A DNA stretch of 64,000 nt from Runella sp. (GTDB lineage Bacteria > Bacteroidota > Bacteroidia > Cytophagales > Spirosomataceae), in the NCBI GenBank assembly GCA_044228585.1, contig JBGAUP010000001.1:5855-69854 (forward strand), read 5' to 3'. Made by a program: the position numbers and the translations under genes. The notes under the pieces are model-generated. The model saw nothing but the letters and a program-made list of their open reading frames with translations, was not told where the DNA came from and searched no databases. Shown piece by piece: positions 1 to 16,838 of this stretch. How positions within the stretch are numbered: position 1 is the stretch's first letter; the number at the start of each line of letters is the position of its first letter.

Positions 1-67
1 CAGCCGTAGAAAAACGACCTTGAATGGCGGTAATAAATAACTGAAACGTGGAAAAGAGATTTCCCAA

Positions 68-475
68 TTACGCTTTTTTGAGCTTTGATGCTTCGTATAA
101 GCCATTCCCAAACACCAATAGCAGGATAATAGGCATCAGCAAGGCCCCTGTTTTGAAGCCTGCCCCCGTCAGGGCGTATGTGCCAGAAGAAAATTTAAAA
201 TAAGTATTGATGAGCAGCCCCGCAGCAGATAAGGTCAACAAACCCAGTACCAAAAGTGCCGTTTGTTTGTTTTTGTTTTGCAAAAATAAGGTAATCCCCA
301 CGGCTATGAGTGTAGTGATGCCTACCGTCGCTAATGCCCGTGGAAAGGTTTTAATCATGTCGTAGTTGTACATCAAGACCCCCAATTTTCCCAATAAGTT
401 GGGGTGTGCCAATAACCAAGCATCGGCTAAGACTAATACGGCCAGAATGAGATAGAAAGAAAGGTTTGATTTCAT
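68..475 (-). CDS. small polytopic membrane protein, function unknown
   Basis: ORF 68..514. The likely start is the internal ATG at 475 (MKSNLSFYLILAVLVL...). Several hydrophobic helices; no family recognised. Confidence 0.55.
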   Translation of the reverse strand: MKSNLSFYLILAVLVLADAWLLAHPNLLGKLGVLMYNYDMIKTFPRALATVGITTLIAVGITLFLQNKNKQTALLVLGLLTLSAAGLLINTYFKFSSGTYALTGAGFKTGALLMPIILLLVFGNGLYEASKLKKA

Positions 476-528
476 GTTGATTTTGTAAGGGTCAAGTACG
501 TATATTGGGGGCAAATATACTCCATTTT

Positions 529-1179
529 ATGCAAGAACATCATCTAAAAGTAGAACGCACAGCGCGGTATTTTACTTTGGGGAAACTCAATGAAAATACA
601 AAAAAAATATGGTTTGTCCTCCACGGTTACGGCCAATTAGCACAGTTTTTTATTAAAAAATTTGAGATACTCAACGATGGACAAACCTTCGTTGTAGCTC
701 CCGAAGCGCTTTCTCGGTTTTATTTGGAAGGAGTTACAGGACGCGTGGGTGCTTCGTGGATGACCCGCGAGGAACGAAACCACGAAATCGCCGACTACGT
801 GGCCTATCTGAATCAGCTCTACGATACCGTTTTGGAAGGGCAAGATGTTTCGGCCATAGAAATCAACGTATTAGGGTTTTCGCAGGGCAATGCTACGGTA
901 TTGAGGTGGCTCAATAACAATCACGTTCGTTGCGATAGATTGGTGATTTGGGCGGGCTTTTTTGCCAACGGCATAGCCGATGTCATTGACCCAATTAAAT
1001 TGGCTAACGTTCCAACAATATTGGCTTATGGCACGCAAGACGAGTATTTGGTACAAATAGATTTAGAGAAATACGAAACGGACATTCGAGCCGCTATTCC
1101 TCATTTGCAGGTCGTGACTTTTGAAGGAAAACATACGGTAGATGGTGTTACCTTAAAGCAAATTGCCGACTCAAAGTAG
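529..1179 (+). CDS. alpha/beta hydrolase (phospholipase/carboxylesterase-type esterase)
   Basis: ORF 505..1179; the likely ATG is at 529. VLHGYGQ oxyanion-type motif and GFSQG nucleophile elbow (G-x-S-x-G). Size about 215 aa. Confidence 0.7.
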   Translation: MQEHHLKVERTARYFTLGKLNENTKKIWFVLHGYGQLAQFFIKKFEILNDGQTFVVAPEALSRFYLEGVTGRVGASWMTREERNHEIADYVAYLNQLYDTVLEGQDVSAIEINVLGFSQGNATVLRWLNNNHVRCDRLVIWAGFFANGIADVIDPIKLANVPTILAYGTQDEYLVQIDLEKYETDIRAAIPHLQVVTFEGKHTVDGVTLKQIADSK

Positions 1180-1190
1180 CGTACTTATAA

Positions 1191-1230
1191 CCCCAGATGG
1201 AACGGATTTTGACATCCGTTCCATCTGGGG
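1191..1230. terminator. perfect 17-bp stem hairpin between convergent genes
   Basis: ccccagatggaacggat (1191-1207) and atccgttccatctgggg (1214-1230) are exact reverse complements with a 6-nt loop. It lies between the stops of two convergent CDS. No clear U-tract. Confidence 0.65.
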
Positions 1231-1239
1231 GGTAGAGTG

Positions 1240-2385
1240 TCAAGAAAATAAACGCTCAATGGTCTTTTCCGAATACCCTCCCGTGGAGGTCATGCCTTTC
1301 CCTCCGATACCCGTAATAATCCGAATGTTTTCGTCCACGTCGTGTTCATAAATTTCGTCGGAAGTTTGGCTATAAAAACCCGACCAACTGCTTTGTATTT
1401 TTTCAACTGGGAAAGTGACAATGCGTTTGGCTTCGTCAATGATTAACTGATTGATGTAATCGTTGTTGTGATACCCTAAATCGTCGGTGTTTCTTGCCCC
1501 CGCATACTCGTGTGAATCTCCTACAACAATTGACCCATCAATAGCTTGTTTAAATAATACATGAATCCCCCACTTTTTGAGCTCTTCGTAGTGCGCTGGT
1601 GTAGTAAGATTTGCGTAAGAAGGCATCTGTTGGAACGATTCATAGCGCCGAATCGTCAAACCTGTCAAAATATTACCTTTCATCAAAAGGTTGGGAAAAG
1701 GTACTGTTTGCATCATTTGTAATTTGCTCACTATCAGCCCACTTTCGGCAAACAATTCGGGGTACAGCATCCGAAACTCGTGTCCGTTACAAACCAATAC
1801 TTTTTCGGCTTCAAACTGCTGACGATTGGTGAGGCGCACGTTTACTTTGCCGTTGGTGGTTTGGCATTCCATCACATTGGCATTATGGAGGTACGTCACC
1901 CCGACTTGTTCAGAACAATAACCGAGTAGTCGTTGCATCAACAGAGGAGAGTCCACCGTTAATTCTTGTGGGAAATAAATTGCTCCTACAGGATACTCTT
2001 TTTGCAAATAAGGGTATTTTTCAAGACAAGCTTCCCGACTCAATAACTCGCACGCGTAGCCCACCTTTTGGTAATAATCGTACAATTCATTGGCCAACTG
2101 CCACTCATCGGCATCGGAGGCGATATAGACCGAGCCATTGTTGCGAACCGTCAAATCTACTTTACTTTGAAGTTCTTGATACAACTCCAGACTCCGTTGG
2201 CCATAATTGAACCATCTTCCTGCTAAACCAGAAGGCACCACTTGTCCAAAATTTCGGACGGTAGCCCCCATGGGGAAATTATCTTTCTCTAACAACAAAA
2301 CCGATTTGTTGCGTTTTGCGGCGTGGTAAGCATGAAATGTCCCCATGATACCCCCACCGACTACAATCAGGTCAAATTTTTGCAT
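1240..2385 (-). CDS. FAD-dependent oxidoreductase, phosphonate-associated clade (TIGR03364-like, recalled from memory)
   Basis: N-terminal Rossmann motif DLIVVGGGIMGTFHAY...LLLEKD, DAO-family length (381 aa), and adjacency to a PhnX-like HAD hydrolase. Confidence 0.75.
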   Translation of the reverse strand: MQKFDLIVVGGGIMGTFHAYHAAKRNKSVLLLEKDNFPMGATVRNFGQVVPSGLAGRWFNYGQRSLELYQELQSKVDLTVRNNGSVYIASDADEWQLANELYDYYQKVGYACELLSREACLEKYPYLQKEYPVGAIYFPQELTVDSPLLMQRLLGYCSEQVGVTYLHNANVMECQTTNGKVNVRLTNRQQFEAEKVLVCNGHEFRMLYPELFAESGLIVSKLQMMQTVPFPNLLMKGNILTGLTIRRYESFQQMPSYANLTTPAHYEELKKWGIHVLFKQAIDGSIVVGDSHEYAGARNTDDLGYHNNDYINQLIIDEAKRIVTFPVEKIQSSWSGFYSQTSDEIYEHDVDENIRIITGIGGKGMTSTGGYSEKTIERLFS

Positions 2386-2461
2386 AAATCAATGAGTTAA
2401 ATACCCGTTTTTCGTATTCTGATATAGTTCACGTAACCCTACCTAAAATCAGAATAACCCC

Positions 2462-3145
2462 TCAAATTACGCCCAACAATTCCGTCAAATTCTCAAAAAT
2501 ATGCGTAGGGTTAGCAGTGGCGAGTTGGGCGCGGGTTTGGGCTCCCGTGAGTACGCCCGCCACGAGTCCACAGCCTGCATTGTGGCCTTCTTCAAGGTCA
2601 ATGGCCGAATCACCGATTTTGGCAACGGCTTTGGGGTCAGGTACACCCGCCAAACGCATGGCTTCCAAAATCATGTCGGGGTGCGGGCGGCCTTGTGTTA
2701 CATCGGAGGCTGTCACGAGGGTATCTACGGTCTGGGGGATAGTCCATCCTAACTGATCCATGAGTAGGTTTGCTACTTCTCGCGAATAGCCCGTATTGAG
2801 AGCTATCTTGATGTTTTGAGCGCGTAAGGCTTCAAACACAGCCTCGGCATCAGGCATGGCGCGGGCGATACCACTGGCGTAAACAGCATCTAACTTTTGC
2901 TTAAAATCTTTATGCACAAACCCCACTACAGTATCGGATGGGGCATTGCTATTTAGGTGCGTAATCACATCTTTAATGGCCTGAAATTTTTCTTTACCTG
3001 CCGCGATTTCCAATACCAATTCTAAAGAGCAGTCATAGCCCGCTTCATTGAGAGCTTGGTGAATGGCCTTGTACACGGCATTTTGCTCGTCTATGGTCGT
3101 TCCTGCCATATCAAAGACCACCAATTTTATCTGATTATGTTCCAT
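2462..3145 (-). CDS. phosphonatase-like HAD hydrolase (PhnX-like, TIGR03351-like)
   Basis: HAD motif I VVFDMAGTT, motif III/IV region KIGDSAIDLEEGHNAG, 227 aa. Co-oriented with and 76 nt upstream of the FAD oxidoreductase. Confidence 0.7.
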   Translation of the reverse strand: MEHNQIKLVVFDMAGTTIDEQNAVYKAIHQALNEAGYDCSLELVLEIAAGKEKFQAIKDVITHLNSNAPSDTVVGFVHKDFKQKLDAVYASGIARAMPDAEAVFEALRAQNIKIALNTGYSREVANLLMDQLGWTIPQTVDTLVTASDVTQGRPHPDMILEAMRLAGVPDPKAVAKIGDSAIDLEEGHNAGCGLVAGVLTGAQTRAQLATANPTHIFENLTELLGVI

Positions 3146-3561
3146 TTGTTCTACGAGACTAATTGAAAAGCAAAAGTATAACTTTACTAAATTAGTTTGT
3201 TTGATTTTATATTAAAGTTTAGTAAAACTTTACATTTTATCGAAATAAATCCTCTTGAAATAGGCAAATATTAATGATAAAAAAATATTATTAGCTGATT
3301 AATAGGATATAATAAGACAAACAGAGTAGTAAACTTCCATAGATATGGAATATTGACAATGTTTAGTTACTGTAAAAAAAACTTAACAAAGTATTTACTA
3401 TAAATTAACTATTTATTATTTTTACTAAACTTATTTTACATTATTTCTGATGGATTCTAAAATAATTATTTTCCTCATAGGTTAAAATGTGAACAATAAA
3501 GCGGAGGAGTTTTCTTTCGCTTTATCCTTTTAAAACACGTCCACCCTAACCTTTCTAAAAT
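3146..3561. promoter_or_regulatory. 416-bp very AT-rich divergent intergenic region with repeated TTTAGTAAA/TTTACTAAA motif
   Basis: Motif copies at about 3183-3193, 3215-3230 (palindromic aagtttagtaaaactt), 3325-3336, 3361-3370 and 3419-3432. There is also a 7-bp inverted repeat ttccata-ga-tatggaa at 3335-3350. Confidence 0.4.
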
Positions 3562-6248
3562 ATGCTTTCTTCTATTTTTCTTACTTTAGTTTTTTTTCCG
3601 TTCCTACTTACAGCCCAAGTTCGTACTGTCAAAACACTGCAAGTACCCAGCCGAACGGAGTTTTGTAAAATAGATACTACGGGTGGCTACTCTGTGCTGC
3701 CCAGCGGACGGCGTGTCACCCCTGCGGGTACGGTGGTACGCATCACCAACGACCCCTTCGGACTGGCCGTTAGTCCCAATGGACAACACATAGTAGCACT
3801 TCACAGTGGTGTGCTATCGCTGATACCCGCCGAAAAACCTTCACAAGTTGTCAGAATCCCCAGTTATGACAAACAAATCCCCGACCCGCTACAAGGAGCT
3901 TCGTTTTTGGGCGCGGTTTTCTCCTCAGATTCCAAAAAGGTCTATTTGAGTGGTGGAGATAAAGGCACTGTCGTGGTTTTTGACGTAGAAAAACAAATAA
4001 AAACCACCGAAGTATCATTGAATCATCCTGTTGATGGGCAAAATTTTGAAGAAAGTTTTACTTCCGACATTCTCCTAAATCCAACCAAAAACGAATTACT
4101 CGCCCTCGACCGCGCCCATTTTCGCTTGGTCAGGATTGATTTAAACACTCAAAAAATTACGGCTTCTATTCCCGTAGGTCGTCAGCCCTTTGGGCTTACG
4201 CTGAGTCCTGATAACAAATATGCTTTTGTAGCCAATGTGGGTTTGTACGAATACCCGCTTGTGCCGGGCGTTACGCCCAAAAACAAAGATACCCTCATGC
4301 TCAAATTTCCCCCTTACGGAACATTTACTAAAGAATCAGTTGAAGGCGTAGAAGTAGAGGGCCGTAAAATCCCAGGATTGGGAAGCCCACTCGCCCCCGA
4401 GGCCATGAGCGTATGGATGATTGACTTGAGTAACAACAAAGTCGCGGGCAAATTTAAAACGGGCCACCAAATTGGAGAAATGATAGAAGAAGCCGAAGTG
4501 GTGGGTGGTGCGAGTCCCAATTCGGTGGTGGTAAGCAAACAATTTGCCTATGTTTCCAATGCCACCAACGACAATATATCGGTGATAGATTATAAAACAC
4601 GCAAAATCGTTGGACATATTCCGCTCAAAGTTCATCCCCAGCATTGACAAATACCAGGCTTAATGCCTTCGGGATGTCCTCACTAAATATTTGCGCAAAC
4701 GCTCTACGTAGCTTTATTGGGTTTCAACGCAGTGGCTGTGGTGGACTTGCCTACGCGCCGCGTCAAAGGATTGATACCTACGGGCTGGGGGCCTACCAAG
4801 GTCAAACTTTCGCCCGATGAAAAACATTTGTACGTGGTATCAGCACGGGGTTTGGGTGCGGGCCAAAATGGAGGGGCAGGCTTTGTAAAACCTGCACGCG
4901 GTACGTATATTGGTGATATTCAGATGGGAACATTTCAGAAAATAGCCGTTCCAAACTCGTTTGAATTACAGAACTTTACCAAACAAGTGTTAAACAATAC
5001 CTTTGAAACACTTGCCATCACGGACGACGGCAAGAATCCATTGCCTGCGTTGCCCAACTTACGCAAGAGTCCTATTAAGTACATTGTATATGTGACCAAA
5101 GAAAACCGCACCTACGACGAAGTATTGGGACAACTTTCTAATGGAGATGCCTCCCTTGCTCGGTATGGCACTAACGTAACTATTACGACCAAAATATTGA
5201 TGTGATGCCCAATCACCAGCGTATCGCCAAACAGTTTGCGTATTCTGATAATTTTTACTGTGATTCTGATGCTTCTATTCATGGACATCATTGGATGATG
5301 GGCGTGATTCCTAATGAATGGGTGGAAGCTAATTCCAACCATTCCAGTACTTTTAACGCTTTCTCAAAAGCCCCAGGCCGACGTTTCCCTAAGGCAACGG
5401 GTGCTATTGACCCCGAAGATTACAATGAAATTGGGGGGCTGTGGGAAGCTTTGGAGCGTAAAAAAATTCCGTTTTATAATTTTGGGGAAGGCAACGAGTT
5501 TGCAGGTGTGGCCGAAGAATGGAACCATTTCGAGTTTGGAGCGCGGCAGCCCGTAGTTTTTCCGTTACAAAAAGCCGTTTTTGACCGTACTTCACGTAAC
5601 TACGCTGGTTTTGACATGAACATTCCCGATTGGCTTCGTATGGACCAATTTGAAAAAGAGTTTACGGAGAAATGGCTGACCCCCAAAAAAGAAGTTCCCC
5701 GTTTGATTGCTCTTCAACTTCCCAACGATCATGGCGCGGGTGTTCGCCCCGAAGCGGGCTATCCGTATCCTCATTCTTTTATGGCTGACAATGATATTTC
5801 GCTGGGACGATTGCTACAATTTCTTTCGCATACGCCTTACTGGAAAAATATGCTTGTGGTGATTACAGAAGACGACCCCCAAGGCGGCGTTGACCACATA
5901 GATGCGCACCGCTCAGTATTGATGATGGCAGGGCCGTACGTTAAGCGCGGACACGTCTCGCATACCCACGCCAATTTTGGCTCTATTTTGAAAGTAATTT
6001 ACAATACATTGGGCGTACCCTACGTCAATCAGTACGATGCGACGGCTTCGTTGTTACAAGATTTTTTCACGGACAAACCCGATTTTACGCCTTACCAGTA
6101 CGTTATCCCAGATACCCAGGTTTTTGATGTGAACAAGGCCATGGATATCTACAAAAAAATGTATAATTGGAAAACGACTCAACCCAGCCCCAAAATGGAT
6201 GACCCCAACGAACAACGAAAAGAACATTATAGACAACAGAACAATTAA
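3562..6248 (+). pseudogene. secreted beta-propeller (YVTN/YncE-like) fused to phosphoesterase (phospholipase C / AcpA family), disrupted
   Basis: Three same-strand ORFs (3562-4647, 4717-5205, 5202-6248) read as one protein. It has a signal peptide, propeller-blade motifs (LSPDNKYAFVANVG, FAYVSNATNDNISVID, LSPDEKHLYVVSARG), then phosphoesterase motifs (VTKENRTYDEVLG, DSDASIHGHHW, ITEDDPQGGVDHIDAHRS). The first two ORFs are in the SAME frame, separated by in-frame TGA (4645-4647) and TAA (4684-4686). The third is offset by one nt at the A4 run 5191-5194. Confidence 0.65.
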
Positions 6249-6249
6249 A

Positions 6250-6813
6250 ATGGCCTTTACTAATCCCATCACCGAAATCCGCCAATTGTTTGAATCACAG
6301 GGTGATGACCAATACTATGGCGAAGACGTAAGTCAGCTCGAACACGCTGCCCAAGGGGCTGATTTGGCGCTTAAAGGGGGCTTTGACAAAGAAATACAGG
6401 CCGCTGCTTTTTTGCACGACATTGGGCATTTGATGCCCGCGGGCATGGAGGAAGAATTAATGGAAGTGTATGGCCGTAAGGACCACGAAGAAATTGCCGC
6501 CGATTGGCTTCGTGAGCGTGGGTTTCCCGAAAAAGTGTGCATTCTGGTGGCCAATCACGTCAATGCCAAGCGGTACTTGACCTTTAAAAATCCCAAGTAT
6601 TTTGCGGGCTTATCCGACGCCAGTCGCAAAACTTTGGAGTTTCAAGGTGGACCCATGCAGGCCGACGAAGCTGCCACTTTTGAGCAAAATCCTTATTTTG
6701 AGCTTATTATTCAGATGCGTCGTTGGGATGAAGCTGCCAAGGTGACGGGGTTGCCTAAGCCTGATTTGGAGAAATATTTGGCGTTGTGCCAGGAGGTGTT
6801 GGAGGGCAAGTAA
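6250..6813 (+). CDS. HD-domain protein, PhnZ-like (phosphonate-operon-associated HD oxygenase family, TIGR03276-like)
   Basis: ORF 6199..6813, with the likely ATG at 6250, directly after the upstream stop. Motifs: YYGEDVSQLEHAAQ, FLHDIGH, NHVNAKRYL, LSDASRKTLEFQGGPM. These match my memory of PhnZ. Confidence 0.7.
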   Translation: MAFTNPITEIRQLFESQGDDQYYGEDVSQLEHAAQGADLALKGGFDKEIQAAAFLHDIGHLMPAGMEEELMEVYGRKDHEEIAADWLRERGFPEKVCILVANHVNAKRYLTFKNPKYFAGLSDASRKTLEFQGGPMQADEAATFEQNPYFELIIQMRRWDEAAKVTGLPKPDLEKYLALCQEVLEGK

Positions 6814-6823
6814 CCATTACAAC

Positions 6824-9388
6824 CTAAAAGTAAATCTTCCGTTTCACCCATTTTTCCAGCTCAACGGCGTGAAATACAACCATTGATAGACCGATACAGA
6901 TGCCAAGTTCTTGTAAACTCAAAGGGGCGGTTTTGAATATATCATTCATAAAAGGCACATAAACAACCCCCATTTGAAGGGAGAAAGTGAGCAAAATAGA
7001 GCCTAATAAGGGTAAATTGCTAAAAATCCCTTGTTTGAAAAGGAAGGTTCTATCGCTTCTTACACCGAGAACATGCCCCAATTGCGACAACGACAGTACC
7101 GTAAAGACCATGGTTTGCCAGTGGGCTAAGTTGTTTTGTAAAGCCCATGCTTGCGTACCAAGTGTCACACCTGCCATCAATAGACCCACCCAAACGATGT
7201 GATAACCTACCCCATCAGCAAAGAGGCTTTCATCGGTGGGTCTTGGTGGTCTTTTCATTACATCTTTTTCGGCCTTTTCGTTGGCCAAAGCCAAGGCGGG
7301 TAGGCCGTCGGTAACGAGATTTATCCATAAAATATGTATTGGAAGCAAAGGAATCGGCATACCGAGCAGCGGCGCGAGAAAAATTGTCCAAATTTCGGCA
7401 CCGTTGCAAGTCATAATGTACTTGACAAACTTACGGATATTGTCGAAGATTCTTCTTCCCTCCCTTACCGCTTTGACAATGGTGGCAAAATTGTCGTCTA
7501 ACAAGATTAAGTGCGCGGCTTCTTTGCTTACATCGGTGCCGTTGATTCCCATCGCTACCCCAATATTGGCAGCTTTAAGCGAAGGGGCATCATTGACCCC
7601 ATCGCCCGTCATGGCGGCAAAATGTCCTTTTTTCTGTAAAGTTCGTACAATGCGCAACTTTTGGTCGGGCGATACCCGCGCGTAAACCACCGTTTGTTCA
7701 ACTTGTTTTAGGAAAGTTTCTTCGTCTATGTGTTGCAATTCTGCCCCTGTCATGACCAAGCCAGTATCGTCTAAAATTCCAATTTCTCGTGCAATCGCTC
7801 TGGCAGTGGCGGGGTGGTCGCCCGTAATCATCACTGGTTTGATGCCAGCGGTTTTACATTCATGGATGGCGTGTTTGACTTCCTCGCGGGCGGGGTCCAT
7901 CAAGCCTACTACTCCCGCAAATTTCAAATTTTTCTCAACCGTATCGTAATTAAACGGTTCGGGCAAGTGATCTAAGACTTGATAGGCATAGGCCAACACC
8001 CGAACGCCTTTGTTGGCCCATTCGTCAGAAAGTATTTTGAGGGTTTCTACCTCCTGTTTGTCTGCTAAAATGGCACTGACGGATTCGCTGGCACCTTTGG
8101 TGATAATTAAAAAACTTTGACCAAAATGATGCACGGTAGTCATACATTTTCGGTCGGAGTCAAACGGCAATTCGGCTACTCTTTCATGTTGGGCGGTTAT
8201 TTGCTGATATTGTTCAAAAGAAAGGGTTTGGACGCTTTTTTCGACCAATGCCAATTCGGTAGATTCGCCAAAAGGCTCCTTATTTTCGTTGAATTTTATG
8301 TCGTGGTTGAGTGCGATGCTCAATTGTAACAAAGACAACGCTGTCTCATTTTTTGAGGTGGTGTTGTCCATCATCTCGACCACCTTCATTTTGTTTTGGG
8401 TCAGAGTACCTGTTTTATCGCTGCAAATAAAGGTAACAGAGCCGAGCGTTTCTACGGCAGGTAATTTTCGGATGAGCGCGTTTTTGGTGGCCAACCGCGC
8501 CGCTCCCCTTGAAAGCGCAATGGTAATGAGTGCTGGTAAGGCTTCTGGAATAGCGGCTACGGCCAAACTGATAGAAAGTAACAAAATTTTGAAGGGGTCT
8601 TCTCCACGTAAAACCCCCGTTACAAATAAGATGGCACAAATCAACAAGATGATGTAAGATAAGTTTTTGCCAAATTTTTCCATGCGTTCTTGCAGAGGGG
8701 TAGCTACTTCTTTTTCTTGCAGCATCCCCGCAATTTTACCCAACTCGGTAGTCATCCCCGTGGCTACTACTACACCTTTAGCGCGGCCATTGGTTACCAA
8801 AGTACCCTTAAAAGTCATGTTGAATTGGTCGCCAAGGGGGATGCTGCTGTCGGGCAAAGCAGCGGTAGATTTGTCAACGGGAATAGACTCGCCCGTGAGC
8901 GACGACTCATCAATCCGCAAAGAGTGGGTTTCTATTAACCGAATATCGGCTGGAACGACGTTGCCTGCCTCGATGACGACGATGTCTCCTGGTACCAAGC
9001 CAGTAGAAGTAATAATGGAGGGCTTCCCCTCTCGGATGACGTGGGCTTGGGTGACAGTCATTTTTTTGAGGGCATCCATGGCTTTTTCGGCTCGGTACTC
9101 TTGGATGAAACCTACAATGGCATTCAACAAAATAATGACGAGGATGATGATAGTGTCGGTCAAATCGCCCATGATACCCGATAACACGGCGGCTGCCGCC
9201 AATATCAATATCATAAAGTCTTTGAACTGGTGCAAAAAAAGCAACCACGCGGGTATTTTCTTTTTCTCTTGCAGTTCGTTGTAGCCGTGTTGGCTTAGTC
9301 GTCGTTGTACTTCTGCCGAAGACAATCCTTCAACAGAGGTGTGAAGTTTAGAAAAAATGCTGGAGATAGATTGGTGGTAGGCGTGCAT
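6824..9388 (-). CDS. cation-translocating P-type ATPase (type II, probably Ca2+)
   Basis: DKTGTLT phosphorylation motif, TGES, MITGDHP, TGDGVNDAPSLK, an N-terminal cation_ATPase_N-like segment. 854 aa. Confidence 0.9.
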   Translation of the reverse strand: MHAYHQSISSIFSKLHTSVEGLSSAEVQRRLSQHGYNELQEKKKIPAWLLFLHQFKDFMILILAAAAVLSGIMGDLTDTIIILVIILLNAIVGFIQEYRAEKAMDALKKMTVTQAHVIREGKPSIITSTGLVPGDIVVIEAGNVVPADIRLIETHSLRIDESSLTGESIPVDKSTAALPDSSIPLGDQFNMTFKGTLVTNGRAKGVVVATGMTTELGKIAGMLQEKEVATPLQERMEKFGKNLSYIILLICAILFVTGVLRGEDPFKILLLSISLAVAAIPEALPALITIALSRGAARLATKNALIRKLPAVETLGSVTFICSDKTGTLTQNKMKVVEMMDNTTSKNETALSLLQLSIALNHDIKFNENKEPFGESTELALVEKSVQTLSFEQYQQITAQHERVAELPFDSDRKCMTTVHHFGQSFLIITKGASESVSAILADKQEVETLKILSDEWANKGVRVLAYAYQVLDHLPEPFNYDTVEKNLKFAGVVGLMDPAREEVKHAIHECKTAGIKPVMITGDHPATARAIAREIGILDDTGLVMTGAELQHIDEETFLKQVEQTVVYARVSPDQKLRIVRTLQKKGHFAAMTGDGVNDAPSLKAANIGVAMGINGTDVSKEAAHLILLDDNFATIVKAVREGRRIFDNIRKFVKYIMTCNGAEIWTIFLAPLLGMPIPLLPIHILWINLVTDGLPALALANEKAEKDVMKRPPRPTDESLFADGVGYHIVWVGLLMAGVTLGTQAWALQNNLAHWQTMVFTVLSLSQLGHVLGVRSDRTFLFKQGIFSNLPLLGSILLTFSLQMGVVYVPFMNDIFKTAPLSLQELGICIGLSMVVFHAVELEKWVKRKIYF

Positions 9389-9391
9389 TTT

Positions 9392-10387
9392 CTATGAAAT
9401 TTGGTAGAGTAAAATCATGTTTACTACGTACAATAAAAAGATGATGAGGGTATCCCAGGCCATTACCATTTTTTTCTCCTTGTTTGGGAAAATAAAACCA
9501 ATAATAGCCGTTGCTACCATTAAGATGACAAAAAATACGGATAACAAATTGACCTCAGAAGCATCTTTGAGCAAATAACCTTTGGTATAAAAGACATCAT
9601 CCAGAAATAAAATGAAGATGTTGAAAATATTGCTACCGAGGAGATTCCCGATCGCCAAATCTGGCGAACCCATACGTACGGCTGCCAAAGAAACGGCAAT
9701 TTCGGGTAAAGAGGTTGAAATGGCCAAAAATAATGTCCCTACAAACGATTTTTCAAGTCCTGTTTCTTCGGCAATGTGTTCGGCAAAATAAGGCAATGCC
9801 AAGGCTGTAATAACAATGATGAGTGCAACAAATGAATAACGAATGATCACCTGTCGTAAGCTAAGGTCATAGTGTTGTTGGGGCGATGTGTTTTCAACCG
9901 TGTGATTGCCTTTTTGGTAGTTGTAAATAGTTTTTACCGAAATAAAATAGATAATAGCGAAGGAGAAGCTGGTGAGACCAATCGAGGGAGTAGTGATAAA
10001 ATCGTCGTTCAAAAATAAGCCTAAGCCCGTCAAAGCCATTAAAATCAAGCCAAAGGCTGCCGCCAGAATATGGCTATGAGACACACTACTGAAAAGCGGG
10101 TGGTCTTTGGGCGTGAATATGTCCATTAATGATAAAATTCCGAGGTTGAAAGCGCAACTACCCAAAATATCACCTAAGGCTAAATCGGCAGACTGAACGA
10201 TGGTAGCGGAGCTAATACCTACCATTAGTTCGGGTAAGGAAGTGACCGTGGACATCAGAATCAGCCCTATCCAAGCTTTCCCCAAGCCCGTTAGATTTGC
10301 CAATAAATCTCCGTAGTGGGAAAGAAGTTTACCAGCAAAAAAGATAATAACAGCACAAAGAATGAAACTAAGGCTATGTAGAAGCAT
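9392..10387 (-). CDS. Ca2+/Na+ antiporter family (CaCA, YrbG-like) membrane protein
   Basis: Two internally repeated halves, each with an alpha-repeat-like motif (GLILMSTVTSLPEL; GTLFLAISTSLPEI), and GNLLGSNIFN. 4 nt from the ATPase stop, so probably one operon. Confidence 0.8.
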   Translation of the reverse strand: MLLHSLSFILCAVIIFFAGKLLSHYGDLLANLTGLGKAWIGLILMSTVTSLPELMVGISSATIVQSADLALGDILGSCAFNLGILSLMDIFTPKDHPLFSSVSHSHILAAAFGLILMALTGLGLFLNDDFITTPSIGLTSFSFAIIYFISVKTIYNYQKGNHTVENTSPQQHYDLSLRQVIIRYSFVALIIVITALALPYFAEHIAEETGLEKSFVGTLFLAISTSLPEIAVSLAAVRMGSPDLAIGNLLGSNIFNIFILFLDDVFYTKGYLLKDASEVNLLSVFFVILMVATAIIGFIFPNKEKKMVMAWDTLIIFLLYVVNMILLYQIS

Positions 10388-10558
10388 AGGTAATGATTTC
10401 AGTGAAGGTTAAGAGAGTAGCAAGATAATTGGAAAAGTATAACCGGGTATTAGAATTTCCTTAGATTTTCAATTAGGAAATCGGAATATGCTAATCTATT
10501 CTACTTTTGTCGTTACGTGTTTCAAGTCACTTTGCCCAATTAATAAATTAAAAATAAC

Positions 10559-11389
10559 ATGAAAACCATTTTAGTGACCACTGATTTTTCGGCTAATTCT
10601 AAAGCGGGTATTCGTTTTGCTATACAATTAGCCTCCCAAACTCCGTGCAAATTGATATTTTATACGACGCTTGAACTTCTTTCCCCGACTTTTTGGCAGA
10701 AGGAGAAAACATTGCGTTTTGTGCAAAATGAAACTCAAAAGGGCAAGCAGCAGTTAGGCCATTTTTTGAGAGACATCTTTAAAAATACCCAAAACGGACA
10801 TCTCAAATATGAATACGAGGTGGAAATGGGTACAGATGTAGTAGGTATGGTTTTGAAATATGCCCAAAAAATCAAAGCAGACTTTATTTGTATGAGTACT
10901 CGGGGGGCAGGTACTTTAAAAAAACTGATGGGTACCAATGCGTCGGCTTTGGTAAATACTTCGCCTATCCCATTGATTGTAGTCCCTAAAAGCTATCGTT
11001 TTAAACCCATTACTAAAATTGGCTACTCTTCTGATTTTGAGAAACTTGATAGTGAGTTGGAGACAGTGAGCCAATTAGCGGCGTTATTTAATGTGGATAC
11101 CGATGTTTATCATTTTGACTATCATATCCACGGTTCAGAAAGGAAAGAAAAACTCAAAAAGTTTCAAGAAAAGTATCAGGGTAAGCCTTTCAATATTTAT
11201 TTACCAAAGTACAATATGGAATATACTCTGGTGGAAAACTTACAAAGGACGATTAAAAATAAAAAACCCTCTATTTTGGTGATGTTTTCTAAAAGTAAAT
11301 TGAATTGGTTTGAGCGTTTATTTTTTTCAGGCTTTACGGCTGGTATGACTTTCGATATTAAAATTCCACTTTTAGCCTATAGAAGATAG
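10559..11389 (+). CDS. universal stress protein (tandem UspA domains)
   Basis: MKTILVTTDFS... start, STRGAG-like motif, PLIVVP, and a duplicated approximately 135-aa architecture. Confidence 0.75.
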   Translation: MKTILVTTDFSANSKAGIRFAIQLASQTPCKLIFYTTLELLSPTFWQKEKTLRFVQNETQKGKQQLGHFLRDIFKNTQNGHLKYEYEVEMGTDVVGMVLKYAQKIKADFICMSTRGAGTLKKLMGTNASALVNTSPIPLIVVPKSYRFKPITKIGYSSDFEKLDSELETVSQLAALFNVDTDVYHFDYHIHGSERKEKLKKFQEKYQGKPFNIYLPKYNMEYTLVENLQRTIKNKKPSILVMFSKSKLNWFERLFFSGFTAGMTFDIKIPLLAYRR

Positions 11390-11403
11390 AATAAACTGAT
11401 GAG

Positions 11404-11435
11404 ACAAAAGCACGGTTTTGGCCGTGCTTTTGTCT
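11404..11435. terminator. bidirectional hairpin terminator
   Basis: gacaaaagcacgg / ccgtgcttttgtc form a perfect 13-bp stem with a 6-nt loop. A-run and T-run flank the stem. It sits between convergent genes. Confidence 0.75.
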
Positions 11436-11454
11436 TAATTTCTCTGATTATCAA

Positions 11455-12399
11455 TTATTTCTCCAACAACATAGCTCCGTAAGAATAACCTCCTCCAAAA
11501 ACAGTAATGACAATTCGCTGACCTTTTTGAAACTTAGGCCAATTTTCGGACAAGCCAATGGCACACCCAGCACAGCCCGTATTGCCGAGGTATTGGATAT
11601 TGGAAAGTAATTTTTCTTCGGGTAGCCCCAACGTATTCATTACGTTCATACTAATTCGTAGATTGGCTTGGTGGGGCAATACATAATCTACGTCTTCTAC
11701 GCTCAATCCACACCTTTCAAGTACTTGTAAACTTGCCTTTGGCATGTAAGTACAGGCATTGATAAACACATCGCGACCAAAAGGCATAATGACACCTCGC
11801 TCGTTGGGGCGCAGTACCACCGCTTCCGTGGCTTTTCCGCTCGTGGCTGCTCCGCCAGTCAATAAAGCACGAATTTGTAAATCTCCCTTGCTGATACGCT
11901 CTTTGGAAATAAGCATGGCTGCCGCTCCGTCGCCCCACAAATGTCCTGATACAGTGTCGGTTTCGTTGTAATAACCCGTGTTGTGTTCTGAAGTAATGAC
12001 CAAGGCTTTGGTCGCTTTATTCATGGCAAAATAGCCTTCTACTACTTCAATGGCGTTAAGTAAAGAAGAACAGGCCGAAGAAATGGTAACGACAGGAATG
12101 TCGGGAATTTCTAAATAATGTTGTACGGCATGCCCCAAGGTGACGATGGCATCGTAAGCGGTGTAGGTAGCACCTACTATCAAATCTACTTCGTTGATGT
12201 CAACTTGAATTTTATCTAACAGTGCCTTTACGGCTTCTACTCCCATCGTATGCGAGTTTTCGGCGGAGGCTGCCTTGCGTCGAAGTTGAATACCCGTGCG
12301 CTGTACAATCCATTCGTCGGACAGGCCATTGAGTTTAGTAAAATGTTCGTTATCAACTACTTGTTCGGGCAAGTAGTGACCGACCTGATGAAGAAACAT
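11455..12399 (-). CDS. 3-oxoacyl-ACP synthase III-like (FabH/KAS III family)
   Basis: Catalytic Cys context ISSACSS, His in LPHQANL, Asn in YLGNTGCAG. 314 aa. Confidence 0.85.
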   Translation of the reverse strand: MFLHQVGHYLPEQVVDNEHFTKLNGLSDEWIVQRTGIQLRRKAASAENSHTMGVEAVKALLDKIQVDINEVDLIVGATYTAYDAIVTLGHAVQHYLEIPDIPVVTISSACSSLLNAIEVVEGYFAMNKATKALVITSEHNTGYYNETDTVSGHLWGDGAAAMLISKERISKGDLQIRALLTGGAATSGKATEAVVLRPNERGVIMPFGRDVFINACTYMPKASLQVLERCGLSVEDVDYVLPHQANLRISMNVMNTLGLPEEKLLSNIQYLGNTGCAGCAIGLSENWPKFQKGQRIVITVFGGGYSYGAMLLEK

Positions 12400-12651
12400 A
12401 CAGTGGTTAGTTTAAACCTATACTTTTAAGGCCGAAAGTTAAACATTTCGTAGAAAACGTAGTACAAATTATTGAAATCTTTCAATAAAGTCATTGATAG
12501 GTACAATTAAATCGAATGTCAATGAGCAAATTTTGAGGCGATTAAGTTCAGAGAGAGGAGTTCAAAAAATAAAATCTATCCAAGAAATAATGTTCGGTGA
12601 GGGAAAGTACCGTATTTTTGCCCAACATCAACCACCGTCGAACTGTCGCCA

Positions 12652-13608
12652 ATGCAGCCTACCAAATTATTAGTTGTTGTTCCTTGCTATAACGAAGAAG
12701 AAATTCTCGCCAAAACCCACTATACGCTACAAGCGTACCGTGGCCGCTTGGTGGCCGAAGGGGCGATTTCTCCCGAGAGTCGGCTGTGTTTTGTAAATGA
12801 CGGTAGTCGTGACCGAACTTGGCAATTGATTGACGAAATTTGCCAAAAAGACCCTTATAGTATCGGGGTGAAACTTTCCCGTAATTTTGGCCATCAAAGT
12901 GCTATTTTGGCAGGGCTGATGCATCATTCTGCCGATTTTGATTGTTTTGTAACCATAGATGCCGATTTGCAGGACGATGTAGAGGCCATTGGGCAGATGA
13001 TTGAGCAACATCGCCGTGGCGCCATGGTTGTGTATGGAGTGCGCGACGACCGCAGCAGTGATACTTGGTTTAAACGCACCACCGCCGAATCTTTCTATAA
13101 AATGATGCGTTGGATGGGCGTACCTGTGGTGTTTAATCATGCTGATTTTCGTTTAATGGATCGGCGTATTTTGGAAGAATTTGCCAACTTCAAAGAAGTA
13201 AATCTGTTTTTGCGGGGTATTATTCCCTTGATTGGCTTTCGTTCCGAAAAAGTTTTTTACAAACGTTTTGAGCGCGAAGCGGGTGAAACCAAATACCCAC
13301 TCCAAAAAATGCTGCTTTTTGCTTGGAACGGGGTTACTTCGTTCAGTACGTTTCCGATGCGCTTGGTTCTTTACTTCGGAGTTCTCAATTTTCTCATTGC
13401 CATTGTCATCGGGTTTTATATCGGCATTTCTTATTTGTTTGGTAGTACCGTAGCAGGTTGGACTTCGATTGTACTCCCTATGACGTTTTTTAGCGGAGCC
13501 AATATGATTGCTATTGGGTTGATTGGAGAATACGTTGGTAAGATTTATGAAGAAGTAAAGGGACGGCCAAGGTATATTATTGAATCAGTAGTGAGGAGTG
13601 AGGAGTGA
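12652..13608 (+). CDS. GT2 polyprenyl-phosphate glycosyltransferase (GtrB/ArnC/DPM1-like)
   Basis: VVVPCYNEE, VNDGSRDRT, SRNFGHQSA, IDADLQDD, plus two C-terminal TM helices. Confidence 0.85.
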   Translation: MQPTKLLVVVPCYNEEEILAKTHYTLQAYRGRLVAEGAISPESRLCFVNDGSRDRTWQLIDEICQKDPYSIGVKLSRNFGHQSAILAGLMHHSADFDCFVTIDADLQDDVEAIGQMIEQHRRGAMVVYGVRDDRSSDTWFKRTTAESFYKMMRWMGVPVVFNHADFRLMDRRILEEFANFKEVNLFLRGIIPLIGFRSEKVFYKRFEREAGETKYPLQKMLLFAWNGVTSFSTFPMRLVLYFGVLNFLIAIVIGFYIGISYLFGSTVAGWTSIVLPMTFFSGANMIAIGLIGEYVGKIYEEVKGRPRYIIESVVRSEE

Positions 13609-13614
13609 GAAAGG
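13587..13614. repeat. heptamer array, GTGANNA family (3-4 units)
   Basis: gtgagga gtgagga gtgagaa (13591-13611). It spans the last codons (VVRSEE) and the TGA stop (13606-13608) of the GT2 gene. Confidence 0.6.
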
Positions 13615-13656
13615 AGTTTATGACACGCAATTAACCATTCACGGATAACAGAAGCA

Positions 13657-15102
13657 TTGATGCTAAAAACCTTACAAAAACCTATATTTCAAGACCTATT
13701 CAACGTTGGATTGTTGGCCGTGGCGGTGGTGCCGTTGTTGATGTTATCGTTGTATAATCACCCTTCGCCTGTTGACGATTATTGCTACATAGATACCGTC
13801 TTTAAATACGGTTATTTTGAAGCCATGAATTATTATTATACGGGTTGGACGGGGCGTTATTTTGGTATTTGGCTCAATCACTCCAATCCGCTGATTGTAG
13901 AATGGGCTGGTGGGTTCAAACTACTTTCTTTTTTGCTAATTCTCGGAGTGGTAAGTAGTATGTATCTGCTAATCAGTGCGTTGTTTTCTAAGAGGAGTTC
14001 TCTCAGCGCTTTAGGGCTAACGGGCGCAATGCTTCTCCTGTTGGTTCTTAAAATCATGAGTGTGGTAGAGGCTTTTTATTGGATGGCGGCTTTTGTGACT
14101 TACACAGTACCGAATATTTTGACGCTTTACTGGTTAGTGGTTATGATTCGCTGGTATCAACTACCCAGTGGAATGTTTCAGAAATTAACGGCGATTTGGG
14201 CTGGTTTTTTGGTGTTTGCGGTGATTGGGTGCAGCGAAACCAATCTTACAATCATGGTTTTACTGGTTTTAGGTTGGTTTGGTTATCAATTGGTGATTCA
14301 TCGAAAATGGGATTGGTTTGCCGTATTTTTAATCGGAGTTGCCGTATTTTCCTGTTATATTTTCTTTTCTTCTCCTGGCAACGCACAACGTTTGGGAGGC
14401 AATCCAGAAGGACGAAATTTTACGCTTTCGACGTTTCAGTCTTTCAAAATGTTGCTAAAATTAGCCTTAGATTGGGTGTTTCTTACTCCTTTATTGGTAT
14501 TCACTATTTTATGGATTGCGGTACTGCCCAAAATCTTTGAAGCAGAAGGAAAGCAGAATCATTATTTTTCAGTGCCGCCTTGGGCAGCTGCGTTGGGCTA
14601 TTTGGGCGTGCTTTTTGTGCAGATTTTTCCCTCTTACTACGGAATTGGTATTGAGCCTGCGCCTCGTGTCATCAATTCGGTATATCTGTATTTCTTGCTT
14701 GGATGGTTTTATAACGTGGCTGTCTTGTTCAAATTTATATACGATAAAAATTGGCTTGGCGCCCAAAAATGGTATTTTCCACCTTCTATCAAGGCGGTAT
14801 TGGCTGCGCTTATCTTGGTGAGTGCCTTATTTAGTCCCAATTTAAGAATGGTTTATGGGGATTGGTTACGTGGACGTGCCGCCGCCTACGATGTAGAATT
14901 GAAAGAACGCTACGCTTACATCAAAAAAACACCTGGCGATACAGTGTATGTAGTTCCTTTGAAATCAAAACCACAATCTTTGTTTATGGACGATGCCAAC
15001 GCCGACCCCAAACATTGGTGGAGCAAGTGCATGGGGGGGTATTTTGGAAAAAAAGCGGTTGTTTTAAGAAGAGAAGAATCTACAGTAAACGTTAAACAGT
15101 AA
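13657..15102 (+). CDS. large polytopic membrane protein, putative GT-C-like glycosyltransferase
   Basis: About 11-12 hydrophobic helices. Acidic DD motif (NHPSPVDDY) in the first predicted loop after TM1. Position directly after a GtrB-like GT2. The family assignment is an inference. Confidence 0.5.
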   Translation: MMLKTLQKPIFQDLFNVGLLAVAVVPLLMLSLYNHPSPVDDYCYIDTVFKYGYFEAMNYYYTGWTGRYFGIWLNHSNPLIVEWAGGFKLLSFLLILGVVSSMYLLISALFSKRSSLSALGLTGAMLLLLVLKIMSVVEAFYWMAAFVTYTVPNILTLYWLVVMIRWYQLPSGMFQKLTAIWAGFLVFAVIGCSETNLTIMVLLVLGWFGYQLVIHRKWDWFAVFLIGVAVFSCYIFFSSPGNAQRLGGNPEGRNFTLSTFQSFKMLLKLALDWVFLTPLLVFTILWIAVLPKIFEAEGKQNHYFSVPPWAAALGYLGVLFVQIFPSYYGIGIEPAPRVINSVYLYFLLGWFYNVAVLFKFIYDKNWLGAQKWYFPPSIKAVLAALILVSALFSPNLRMVYGDWLRGRAAAYDVELKERYAYIKKTPGDTVYVVPLKSKPQSLFMDDANADPKHWWSKCMGGYFGKKAVVLRREESTVNVKQ

Positions 15103-15119
15103 ACCATCTGACGATACTA

Positions 15120-16838
15120 TTGAACTCATCAAGAAAATATATCATCTTCGCCTTTATTCTGCTTCCTATTGTTGTGTTTTATGGCTTTAGTATAGCTTAT
15201 AGCACCAATATTCCGTGGTTTGATGACATTGAAAATATTCCCTATTTTCTTTCCCGTCTGCTTGACGCCCCCACTTGGTACGAACGTGCCGAGGCATTTT
15301 TGCGCCCCAACAACGAGCACCGTGTTTTGAGCGCACGGCTCATTGTCTATTTCAATTATTTGTTGACCCACCAACTCAACTTTCGGGCATTGGCACTGAT
15401 CGGAAACCTAACGGTACTTGGTATTTTCTTGCTCCTAACAAGCGCTTATTTGAAAAATAGCGGACGGCTTCTTTATCTCATTCCTGCTGCATTTTTTATT
15501 TTCAACTTACAATTTTACAGCATGACGTTTATGACGATCATGTCGCTTCAGTATCAGTTGATTATCTGCGAGGTATTTTTGAGTCTGTATTTATTGGTTA
15601 AACCTTCCCGTTTTAGTTTTGGAGCAGCCATTTTGGTGGCAATCTTAGGTACATTCAGCATGGGAAATGGTTTGATGGTTTGGCCAACAGGGGCGCTTAT
15701 TCTACTCTATTTAGGACACTGGTCACGCTTAAGTACTTGGTTGATTATCGGCGTTTTATCCATTGTGGGGTATTTTTCGGGCTATGCTTTTGTGCAGGGC
15801 AACGACGAAGGATTTCTGTATTTCTTCCAGCATCCATTCAAAGTCATCATCGGTTTCTTTGCGTTTGTAGGCGGGATTTTGGATTGGTTTCCCCGAATTA
15901 CATTTGAAAAACGGATGCTTCTTCCTGTGTTGGGCGGACTGTTTATTGTTGTTTTTTTTCTGTTCTATACCCTCGGAATGGTCGGTATATCAGCACGTTG
16001 GCGTACTTTGGTTTCTCCCAAACTTACCAAATTTTACCTACGAATTCCTTATTTCAGAAACATAGAGCCGCGTTGGGGTGCATTTTGGGTAGGGTGTTTT
16101 GTGTATTTGTTGATTAACAGCGCATTGGTGGTGTTTTTTCGTACGCGCTTTGATTATCAATTGGTGCTTTGGGCCACCTACAAAATTTATCCAGGAACGC
16201 TCATGGCATTAACCGTCCTTTTAGTTTTGCAAATAATCGCTCCAGCACGACAAAAAGTGGGACTCATACTGTTTACTGGAGCCGCTTTACTTTCTTGGTT
16301 ATCTTCCTATTGGCATTTTATACCACAAGTACAACAAGACCGCAAACAACGATTGGCTTTTGCCTTCAATCAACAGCGCAACGACGTAGGATTAGGCGCT
16401 GAAAAGAATTCCAATTTTGCTCAATTTATTGTCGCCACCTTGGACAGTGCCGAGTCCAAAGGGTTTTACAAATTGCCTGCTCCTTTGCTTGACCCACAGG
16501 AAAAAGGGATTGAAAAAATATTGCGCGACAGTACATTGAAACTGCCGATAACAACCGTAAATGTGAATGACCAAACTAACACATTGGTAATCAGCAATGA
16601 AACGCTTGAGTACATCGAAGGAAAAGAAACTGGAGTGTTTATCACGTTGACCTCACCCCGTCATTTTTACATTTTTTCGGCAGCTCCTAATCAGGCATTT
16701 CACAATCCTCAAAAAGGATTTCAGATTTATTGTCCTAAAGGTGTTTTGTATAACGAAACCTATCAAATTGGGGTTTGGGTTGTGCAAAAAAGTGGTAATC
16801 AGATTTACAAAACCAGCCAAAACGTAAGATTACCGTGA
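15120..16838 (+). CDS. large polytopic membrane protein with C-terminal soluble domain, putative GT-C-like glycosyltransferase
   Basis: TTG start (no in-frame ATG nearby). DD motif (IPWFDDIE) after TM1. More than 10 helices, then an approximately 150-aa non-hydrophobic tail. Followed by a second GtrB-like GT2. Confidence 0.5.
   Translation: MNSSRKYIIFAFILLPIVVFYGFSIAYSTNIPWFDDIENIPYFLSRLLDAPTWYERAEAFLRPNNEHRVLSARLIVYFNYLLTHQLNFRALALIGNLTVLGIFLLLTSAYLKNSGRLLYLIPAAFFIFNLQFYSMTFMTIMSLQYQLIICEVFLSLYLLVKPSRFSFGAAILVAILGTFSMGNGLMVWPTGALILLYLGHWSRLSTWLIIGVLSIVGYFSGYAFVQGNDEGFLYFFQHPFKVIIGFFAFVGGILDWFPRITFEKRMLLPVLGGLFIVVFFLFYTLGMVGISARWRTLVSPKLTKFYLRIPYFRNIEPRWGAFWVGCFVYLLINSALVVFFRTRFDYQLVLWATYKIYPGTLMALTVLLVLQIIAPARQKVGLILFTGAALLSWLSSYWHFIPQVQQDRKQRLAFAFNQQRNDVGLGAEKNSNFAQFIVATLDSAESKGFYKLPAPLLDPQEKGIEKILRDSTLKLPITTVNVNDQTNTLVISNETLEYIEGKETGVFITLTSPRHFYIFSAAPNQAFHNPQKGFQIYCPKGVLYNETYQIGVWVVQKSGNQIYKTSQNVRLP

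Follow-up and report, generated by a model that had tools for sequence, protein, structure and literature searches.

A putative aminophosphonate-scavenging locus of Bacteroidota, present in reduced form in a Runella draft genome

Which phosphonates could a bacterium use if it encodes, in one cluster, an FAD-dependent oxidase, a PhnX-like hydrolase and a PhnZ-like HD-domain oxygenase, with neither PhnW nor PhnY* nor a transporter beside them? The question is raised by a 64,000-nucleotide stretch of a Runella genome (contig C44, positions 5855–69854; the whole stretch is referred to below as the window), in which these genes surround a secreted beta-propeller/phosphoesterase (PE). The draft consists of 485 contigs (6.1 Mb) assembled at low coverage, and the source habitat is given as freshwater/sludge; at 90% completeness, genome-wide absences are reported here as 'not found' rather than 'absent'. 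An initial annotation had described the cluster as an unusual, transporter-less enzyme set in which two routes of phosphonate breakdown meet. On balance, we favour the interpretation that the cluster represents a trimmed version of a phosphorus-scavenging locus which is widespread in Bacteroidota and aimed at 2-aminoethylphosphonate (AEP)-type compounds.

Gene content and coordinates proved to be as originally described. The PbfD-type oxidase passes the curated cut-off of the whole-protein hidden Markov model (HMM) TIGR03364 (353.7 vs 285.1 bits) and is 84% identical to orthologues in genomes G008, G010 and G016; no second gene above this cut-off was found in the draft genome. The PhnX-like protein passes the TIGR03351 cut-off (240.6 vs 218.9 bits), matches B. 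cereus PhnX structures at 58 bits and fails the canonical PhnX equivalog TIGR01422 (108.7 vs 220 bits); canonical PhnX was not found elsewhere in the draft genome either. Residues D12, A14, G15, T16, G50, K53, R153 and D179 of this protein are invariant in 40/40 family members, and we take D12/A14/G15/T16 to be the DxAGT nucleophile motif, K53 the cap-domain lysine and R153 an arginine replacing the usual HAD lysine. Two types of PhnX-like gene were seen at the same position in Runella. The type found in the window shares 75% identity with that of a Runella metagenome-assembled genome and 45–50% with those of Chitinophagales, whereas the other (L033:~2993, L020:1915-2682), which is the one carried by the G008, G010 and G016 loci, is 31–36% identical to the window's and stays under the TIGR03351 cut-off (168.7 bits). 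This distribution suggests allelic replacement.

The assignment of the HD protein to the PhnZ type held with respect to its active site and fell slightly short with respect to its family score. Scored against TIGR03276, it reached 209.7 bits, 5 bits under the cut-off of 214.6, compared with 218.3 for the 89% identical G008 orthologue and 208.8 for the G023 orthologue; it was far under the cut-off of 300 for both the TmpB (151.8 bits) and the G. maris PhnZ1 equivalog (137.6 bits). Matches to PhnZ structures 4n6w/4mlm (138.8 bits) and TmpB 6npa (119.4 bits) were obtained, and all six diiron ligands (H..HD..H..H..D), the YxxE loop and the H62 equivalent of the PhnZ structures are retained. Residues aligned to PhnZ 4mlm (Y39, E42, H49, H73, D74, H96, H120 and D177, plus H77) are conserved in 67–69 of 69 relatives. 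Residue roles were taken from the part of PMC8177086 available to us, where PhnZ is described as cleaving (R)-1-hydroxy-2-aminoethylphosphonate (R-HAEP) with a substrate loop formed by Y24 and E27. Judged by these sequence comparisons, the HD protein is PhnZ-like. All three enzyme genes are full-length, are the sole members of their families found in the 6.1-Mb draft and lie inside 5.6 kb, a clustering far beyond chance. Their products show no visible signal peptide, and the N-terminus of PE is hydrophobic when read by eye.

Each half of this enzyme set has a published counterpart. In the PbfD-PhnX pathway, as given in the accessible part of Zangelmi et al. 2023 (PMC10590968), PbfD enzymes of A. 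baumannii and M. fucicola oxidise N-methyl-AEP (M1AEP) and AEP to phosphonoacetaldehyde (PAA), substituting for PhnW beside phnX. The locus in the window resembles this pathway (compare PbfD2 of Mariniblastus fucicola) in that a TIGR03364 oxidase adjoins a phosphonatase-type HAD hydrolase and PhnW was found in neither locus nor genome; it differs in that the hydrolase belongs to the TIGR03351 clade and in that a PhnZ-like oxygenase and a secreted PE are added, to which relatives further add SusC/SusD and DUF5690. The HD protein shares its metal ligands, YxxE loop and H62 equivalent with PhnZ of HF130_AEPn_1 from the PhnY*/PhnZ pathway, but the locus is without the hydroxylase of that pathway. 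PhnZ has also been seen on hydrolytic clusters: according to the portion of Zangelmi et al. 2021 (PMC8154272) covered here, its homologues are attached to 15/1186 phnWX and 24/75 phnWAY clusters, never alongside PbfA, are tabulated separately from the phnY*Z type (Table 1 of that paper) and are read as an R-HAEP branch. There, as proposed for the window, PhnZ would take R-HAEP beside a hydrolytic route, although the partner route in the window uses PbfD, not PhnW. The claim that a hydrolytic route (oxidase plus PhnX-like hydrolase) and a PhnZ-type route stand together without PhnW or PhnY* was borne out.

Searches of the draft genome returned no PhnW (best match 170 vs 400.8 bits), no phosphoenolpyruvate mutase and no TauD-family gene. 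No 2-oxoglutarate (2OG)/Fe(II) hydroxylase lies beside the HD gene in window positions 1-16838 or in the 5.8 kb upstream; four PhyH-family genes are present in the genome, all on contigs other than C44. The one on C241 was considered as a PhnY* candidate, lying as it does beside the genome's best SusC/SusD matches, and was rejected, the system there being a sugar-type ATP-binding cassette (ABC) system and the SusC only 33% identical.

Instead of two branches, the three enzymes might make up a single linear pathway acting on HAEP in hydroxylated or N-methylated form. The oxidase would then produce 1-hydroxy-2-oxoethylphosphonate, the PhnX-like hydrolase would convert this to glycolaldehyde and phosphate, and the HD protein would act on another 1-hydroxyphosphonate. 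HAEP is indeed proposed as a substrate in the TIGR03364 family description quoted in PMC10590968, the PhnX-like protein is well under the PhnX equivalog, and the HD, PhnX-like and PbfD genes share one tight operon in many loci. However, both PbfD enzymes assayed in the same work oxidise M1AEP and AEP to PAA, with HAEP activity not reported in the part of that paper available to us, and the HD protein retains the glutamate that binds the HAEP amino group, which fits HAEP as a substrate of the HD protein and not of the oxidase. A linear pathway therefore appears distinctly improbable.

Comparison with related loci revealed what the window has lost. Genomes G008, G010 and G016 share the order PbfD, PhnX-like, SusC, SusD, PE, HD; stretches from G005 and G019 contain the PE-HD pair without extending to the remaining genes, and G014 has SusC-SusD-PE on one contig. 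SusC/SusD genes are present in loci L016, L017, L020, L031-L033 and L117, with R. zeae DSM 19591 and R. defluvii DSM 17976 (L031 and L032) as examples of type strains having the complete locus, and blastn break points place the 417-bp spacer of the window exactly where other Runella species have this pair. An independent 2410-nt contig covers about 2204-4613 (PhnX-like gene, spacer and PE) with 0 differences. The absence of SusC/SusD from the window locus is a lineage-specific loss; no orthologue of the pair was found elsewhere in the draft genome (best identity 33–34%, vs 54–87% for orthologues in other Runella). As had been claimed, no aminotransferase, 2OG dioxygenase, ABC importer or major facilitator superfamily (MFS) importer lies within 6 kb of the locus; a TonB-dependent receptor and an AraC regulator are located 2.5 kb upstream, on C44 before the window. 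This receptor was discarded as the missing transporter: its whole flank shows conserved synteny with G008 and G016, two genomes in which SusCD is present as well, and its identity to the receptor family of the loci is only 24%. Lack of a transporter, put forward as a trait of the locus, is peculiar to this genome, since orthologous loci have SusC/SusD at this place and a DUF5690 gene is encoded elsewhere in the genome. Outside the genus, genome G023 has six co-directional genes in the order HD-PE-TonB-dependent receptor-DUF5690-PhnXlike-PbfD. Between PE and HD, G008 has a small opposite-strand insertion (L020:10599-11296) made up of an MntA-like nucleotidyltransferase antitoxin and a 127-aa partner; in G010 (L017), a gap of similar size separates the two genes.

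A scan with an HD alignment, limited to one genome per species, kept 80 loci, 59 of them from Bacteroidota; their 1162 open reading frames (ORFs) were clustered, and the clusters were named by Pfam and NCBIfam. SusC and SusD accompanied the HD gene in 44 of the 59 Bacteroidota loci, some esterase in 38 (the esterase slot adjoins HD), PbfD in 37, DUF5690 in 35 and the PhnX-like gene in 33; all three core genes were present in 29, and seven loci had no recurring neighbour. The order HD-PhnXlike-DUF5690-PbfD was recurrent. Among the esterases, NPP-type enzymes accounted for 19+4, the beta-propeller enzyme for 14, metallophosphoesterases for 9+6, purple acid phosphatase for 5 and GDPD for 2. A hydroxylase beside HD occurred in 0/59 Bacteroidota loci, a TauD/GBBH-type cluster being seen in just 2/80 loci, both proteobacterial, and no PhyH was detected among 109 unnamed neighbours scanned (within three genes of HD, 190–470 aa, one representative per cluster). 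This survey of HD-gene neighbourhoods places the locus among many of its kind rather than as an isolated oddity.

DUF5690 proteins have about 10 hydrophobic segments, and their Atlas clusters carry the names DUF5690 or MFS transporter. The single DUF5690 gene of the Runella genome (PF18943, 503 bits) is unlinked to the locus (L112:10333-11595, contig C341), where it stands isolated between ribosomal-protein genes and an RraA-like gene, with no ORF of at least 110 aa in the 2-kb stretch upstream. DUF5690 keeps company with phosphonate genes outside Bacteroidota too: a gammaproteobacterial variant in L096, L099, L101 and L104 (Pseudoalteromonas, Thalassotalea, Colwellia) reads TonB receptor-DUF5690-PhnXlike-TIGR03329 oxidase-HD-GntR; its oxidase scores 704 bits, and a true PhnW (576.6 bits) lies close by.

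Identification of PE as a beta-propeller/phospholipase C (PLC)-family phosphoesterase stood up as regards fold and motifs, less so as regards family thresholds. Its three ORFs are colinear with single orthologues of 903–946 aa, and the fragments are 76% and 89% identical to the 903-aa G008 orthologue. Orthologues at 86–93% identity were found in 10/19 same-genus genomes searched (closest G014, 93%) and one at 71% in another genus, and seven genomes have single open frames of 906–946 aa. On two PE fragments, PF04185 scored 13.3 and 18.3 bits, under the Pfam gathering threshold of 23, and TIGR03397 was under its cut-off (34.7 vs 362.75). An alignment of 22 sequences served to model the C-terminal domain of the G008 orthologue (pLDDT 70.8). 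Top fold matches of this model (E 3e-9 to 4e-7, TMq 0.42-0.50) were Francisella AcpA (2d1g), GPE ethanolaminephosphodiesterase (8yk5), plant and fungal non-specific PLCs and PlcN/PlcH; the best matches also included 8haw, 8k3g and 9gy2. Columns E-N-R-T-Y-D, N-D-H and E-D-D...D-H, which presumably form the AcpA metal site, are invariant in 22/22 PE sequences. Because of this fold and the invariant motifs of the orthologue, the C-terminal domain reads as a PLC/AcpA-type phosphoesterase in the model, differing from those enzymes in its fusion to a YVTN beta-propeller and in an identity of 11–15% in structural alignments.

PE could, on the other hand, be unrelated to phosphonates: as part of the phosphate-starvation response, it may scavenge phosphodiesters or phospholipids in general and adjoin phosphonate genes via shared regulation only. 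It is found in 14/59 loci with other esterase types in the same slot, PE paralogues occur at other places in Runella genomes, and SusCD-like phosphate utilisation loci of Flavobacterium hold ordinary phosphomono- and diesterases, as far as the available part of PMC8115612 shows. Against such a role, a single base separates the stop codon of PE and the start of HD, and PE forms part of the co-directional block in G023; moreover, freeing a head group with its C-P bond from a phosphono-ester would need a PLC-type cut. We consider a general scavenger unlikely. The earlier proposal of a secreted esterase that could release phosphonate head groups fits the conserved synteny (38/59 loci and the six-gene block of G023).

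As assembled in the window, PE is interrupted by two in-frame stops, at about 4645 and about 4687, and changes frame at about 5195. Combined with the loss of SusC/SusD from the locus and the failure to find their orthologue in the genome, these breaks raise the alternative that the locus is decaying in this strain, PE being a true pseudogene and the remaining genes relics. In the independent assembly of run X1, which is probably the source sample, 0.95 of sampled words were present at a word depth of 5–7. Contigs of X1 stop at 4613, resume at 4666, and end and resume at 5194, matching the PE break sites. Relative to the window, the contig over 4666-5194 shows two substitutions, one inserted base and two deleted bases, and read in this form its 175 codons contain 0 stops, compared with 1 in the window. 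The contig from 5194 carries 8 additional letters, which in the downstream frame encode Leu-Arg, same as in the orthologue. Runs X3, X4 and X5 gave just short diverged pieces, neither PE break site being covered.

We also examined 34 genes of the genome for which a relative of at least 50% identity exists. Of these, six were flagged broken, four of them with a frame change (PE, its paralogue on C336 and one gene each on C154 and C174, the latter two encoding a CLC channel and an 839-aa protein); the other two flags were single stops, one of which, on the TonB receptor, came from an alignment overrunning an end, the receptor ORF being open. A SusC with an in-frame stop and a SusD are also interrupted on C241 (L115:1708-6415). 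Frame changes in 4/34 sampled genes point to a draft-wide problem. Since both PE breaks fall where X1, at a depth of 5–7, has contig ends or letters that differ from the window, they are read as probable assembly errors, not decay, and there is a good probability that the gene is intact in the cell. Decay, against which the full-length PbfD, PhnX-like and HD genes also speak, is correspondingly improbable.

Table 1. Features between positions 505 and 6813 of the window
Feature	Position	Strand	Evidence and remarks
Alpha/beta hydrolase (phospholipase/carboxylesterase family)	505..1179	+	PF02230 33.7 bits; convergent neighbour of PbfD
PbfD-type FAD-dependent aminophosphonate oxidase	1240..2385	-	TIGR03364 353.7 bits; PF01266 155.7 bits
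PhnX-like HAD hydrolase, phosphonatase-like	2462..3145	-	TIGR03351 240.6 bits; 76 nt upstream of PbfD, same strand
AT-rich divergent spacer, 417 bp	3146..3561	.	GC 0.37; SusC + SusD (about 5 kb) here in other Runella species
Secreted YVTN beta-propeller fused to putative PLC/AcpA-type phosphoesterase (PE)	3562..6248	+	Three ORFs: 3562-4647, 4717-5205, 5202-6248
PhnZ-like HD-domain diiron oxygenase	6250..6813	+	TIGR03276 209.7 bits; longest ORF begins 6199

The six features of the locus and its immediate surroundings are listed in Table 1. Orthologue comparison and the sequence itself make the ATG at 6250, one base past the PE stop, the most likely HD start. The alpha/beta hydrolase is syntenic beside PbfD in G008 and G016, where it precedes the oxidase gene (74% identity), and occurs in 0/80 surveyed HD loci; its link to the phosphonate locus is uncertain. 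Between HD and a FabH-like gene, positions 6824-11389 encode a P-type Ca-ATPase (854 aa), a Ca/Na exchanger and a tandem Usp protein, a block absent at the same place in other Runella species. Upstream of the window, C44 encodes a 134-aa protein (L002:4640-5044) with a hydrophobic N-terminus followed by long Arg/Asp/Glu-rich repeats, for which no significant family match was obtained (best Pfam E-value 0.015, under the cut-off). A sigma-70 promoter and terminator scan of 1100-6900, which does not cover Bacteroidota promoters, gave nothing in excess of shuffled sequence, with 14 promoter-like sites vs 10.5±3.3 in shuffles and 1 terminator vs 7.3.

Taken as a phosphorus-scavenging locus, the full version would operate as follows. 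SusC/SusD or a TonB-dependent receptor would carry an esterified phosphonate through the outer membrane. A periplasmic esterase would then free the head group by a PLC-type cut of the P-O ester, this being the putative task of the beta-propeller/PLC-like enzyme here and of an NPP, GDPD, metallophosphoesterase or purple acid phosphatase elsewhere, and the DUF5690 membrane protein would import the head group into the cell. In the cytoplasm, PbfD may deaminate AEP and N-methyl-AEP oxidatively to PAA, which the PhnX-like hydrolase would cleave via its Schiff-base lysine to acetaldehyde and phosphate. On a second branch, the PhnZ-like oxygenase would cleave naturally pre-hydroxylated R-HAEP, with glycine and phosphate as products. 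As this genome retains intact genes for DUF5690 and all three cytoplasmic enzymes, free aminophosphonates could still be used.

Several points weigh against this interpretation. The enzymology is carried over, by analogy, from published homologues of the locus enzymes; the HD protein scores just below its family cut-off, and the PhnX-like protein, which does not group with PhnX but in a clade of its own, could accept a different substrate. For PE, the model is mediocre in both pLDDT and TMq, PF04185 stays below threshold, and PE, present in a minority of loci and with paralogues in other contexts, is linked to phosphonates by position alone. This genome is without the outer-membrane SusC/SusD pair, and any of the four PhyH-family genes elsewhere in it may be a hydroxylase. 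The locus counts are lower bounds, some contigs being cut, and the sample was picked by likeness to this HD protein.

The initial annotation held that the combination had not been described. Its components have been: PbfD in place of PhnW (PMC10590968), PhnZ on hydrolytic clusters (PMC8154272) and SusCD-like phosphonate loci (PMC8115612) all appear in the portions of these papers available to us, and what looked like an 'unusual enzyme set' recombines modules that had already been described. For the last of these, Lidbury et al. 2020 (PMC8115612) give, in the part covered, one sentence and a figure on SusCD-like loci with phosphonate-degrading enzymes in Flavobacterium. Relatives of the window locus share with these PusCD phosphate utilisation systems the SusC/SusD pair with periplasmic esterases, phosphonate enzymes and an inner-membrane transporter candidate, whereas the window has lost SusC/SusD. 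Our literature search returned no account of a conserved HD-PhnXlike-DUF5690-PbfD operon behind SusCD, though Table S1 of PMC10590968, which it did not cover, might list such clusters. Nor did it return a functional paper on DUF5690 (one unrelated match) or PF18943, or any report that the beta-propeller/PLC-like enzyme acts on phosphono-esters.

More tentatively, and as a possibility rather than a probability, Bacteroidota may have a dedicated phosphonate utilisation locus in which SusCD imports esterified aminophosphonates (fragments of phosphonolipids or phosphonoglycans), a variable esterase would be the first known to free AEP-type head groups, and DUF5690 would represent a new family of inner-membrane aminophosphonate importers serving the HD/PhnX-like/PbfD core; the window would then be a natural SusCD-less derivative. 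Taken alone, the window is a modest result, offering published enzyme types in a trimmed locus copy from a low-coverage draft. Phosphonates are, however, a sizeable pool of organic phosphorus, of which the release from lipids and glycans and the import by Bacteroidota are poorly known. The survey yields three testable candidates in this respect, namely the HD-PhnXlike-DUF5690-PbfD operon, the adjoining esterase slot and an uncharacterised membrane protein family, and it is this wider locus type, more than the window itself, that provides the more interesting lead.

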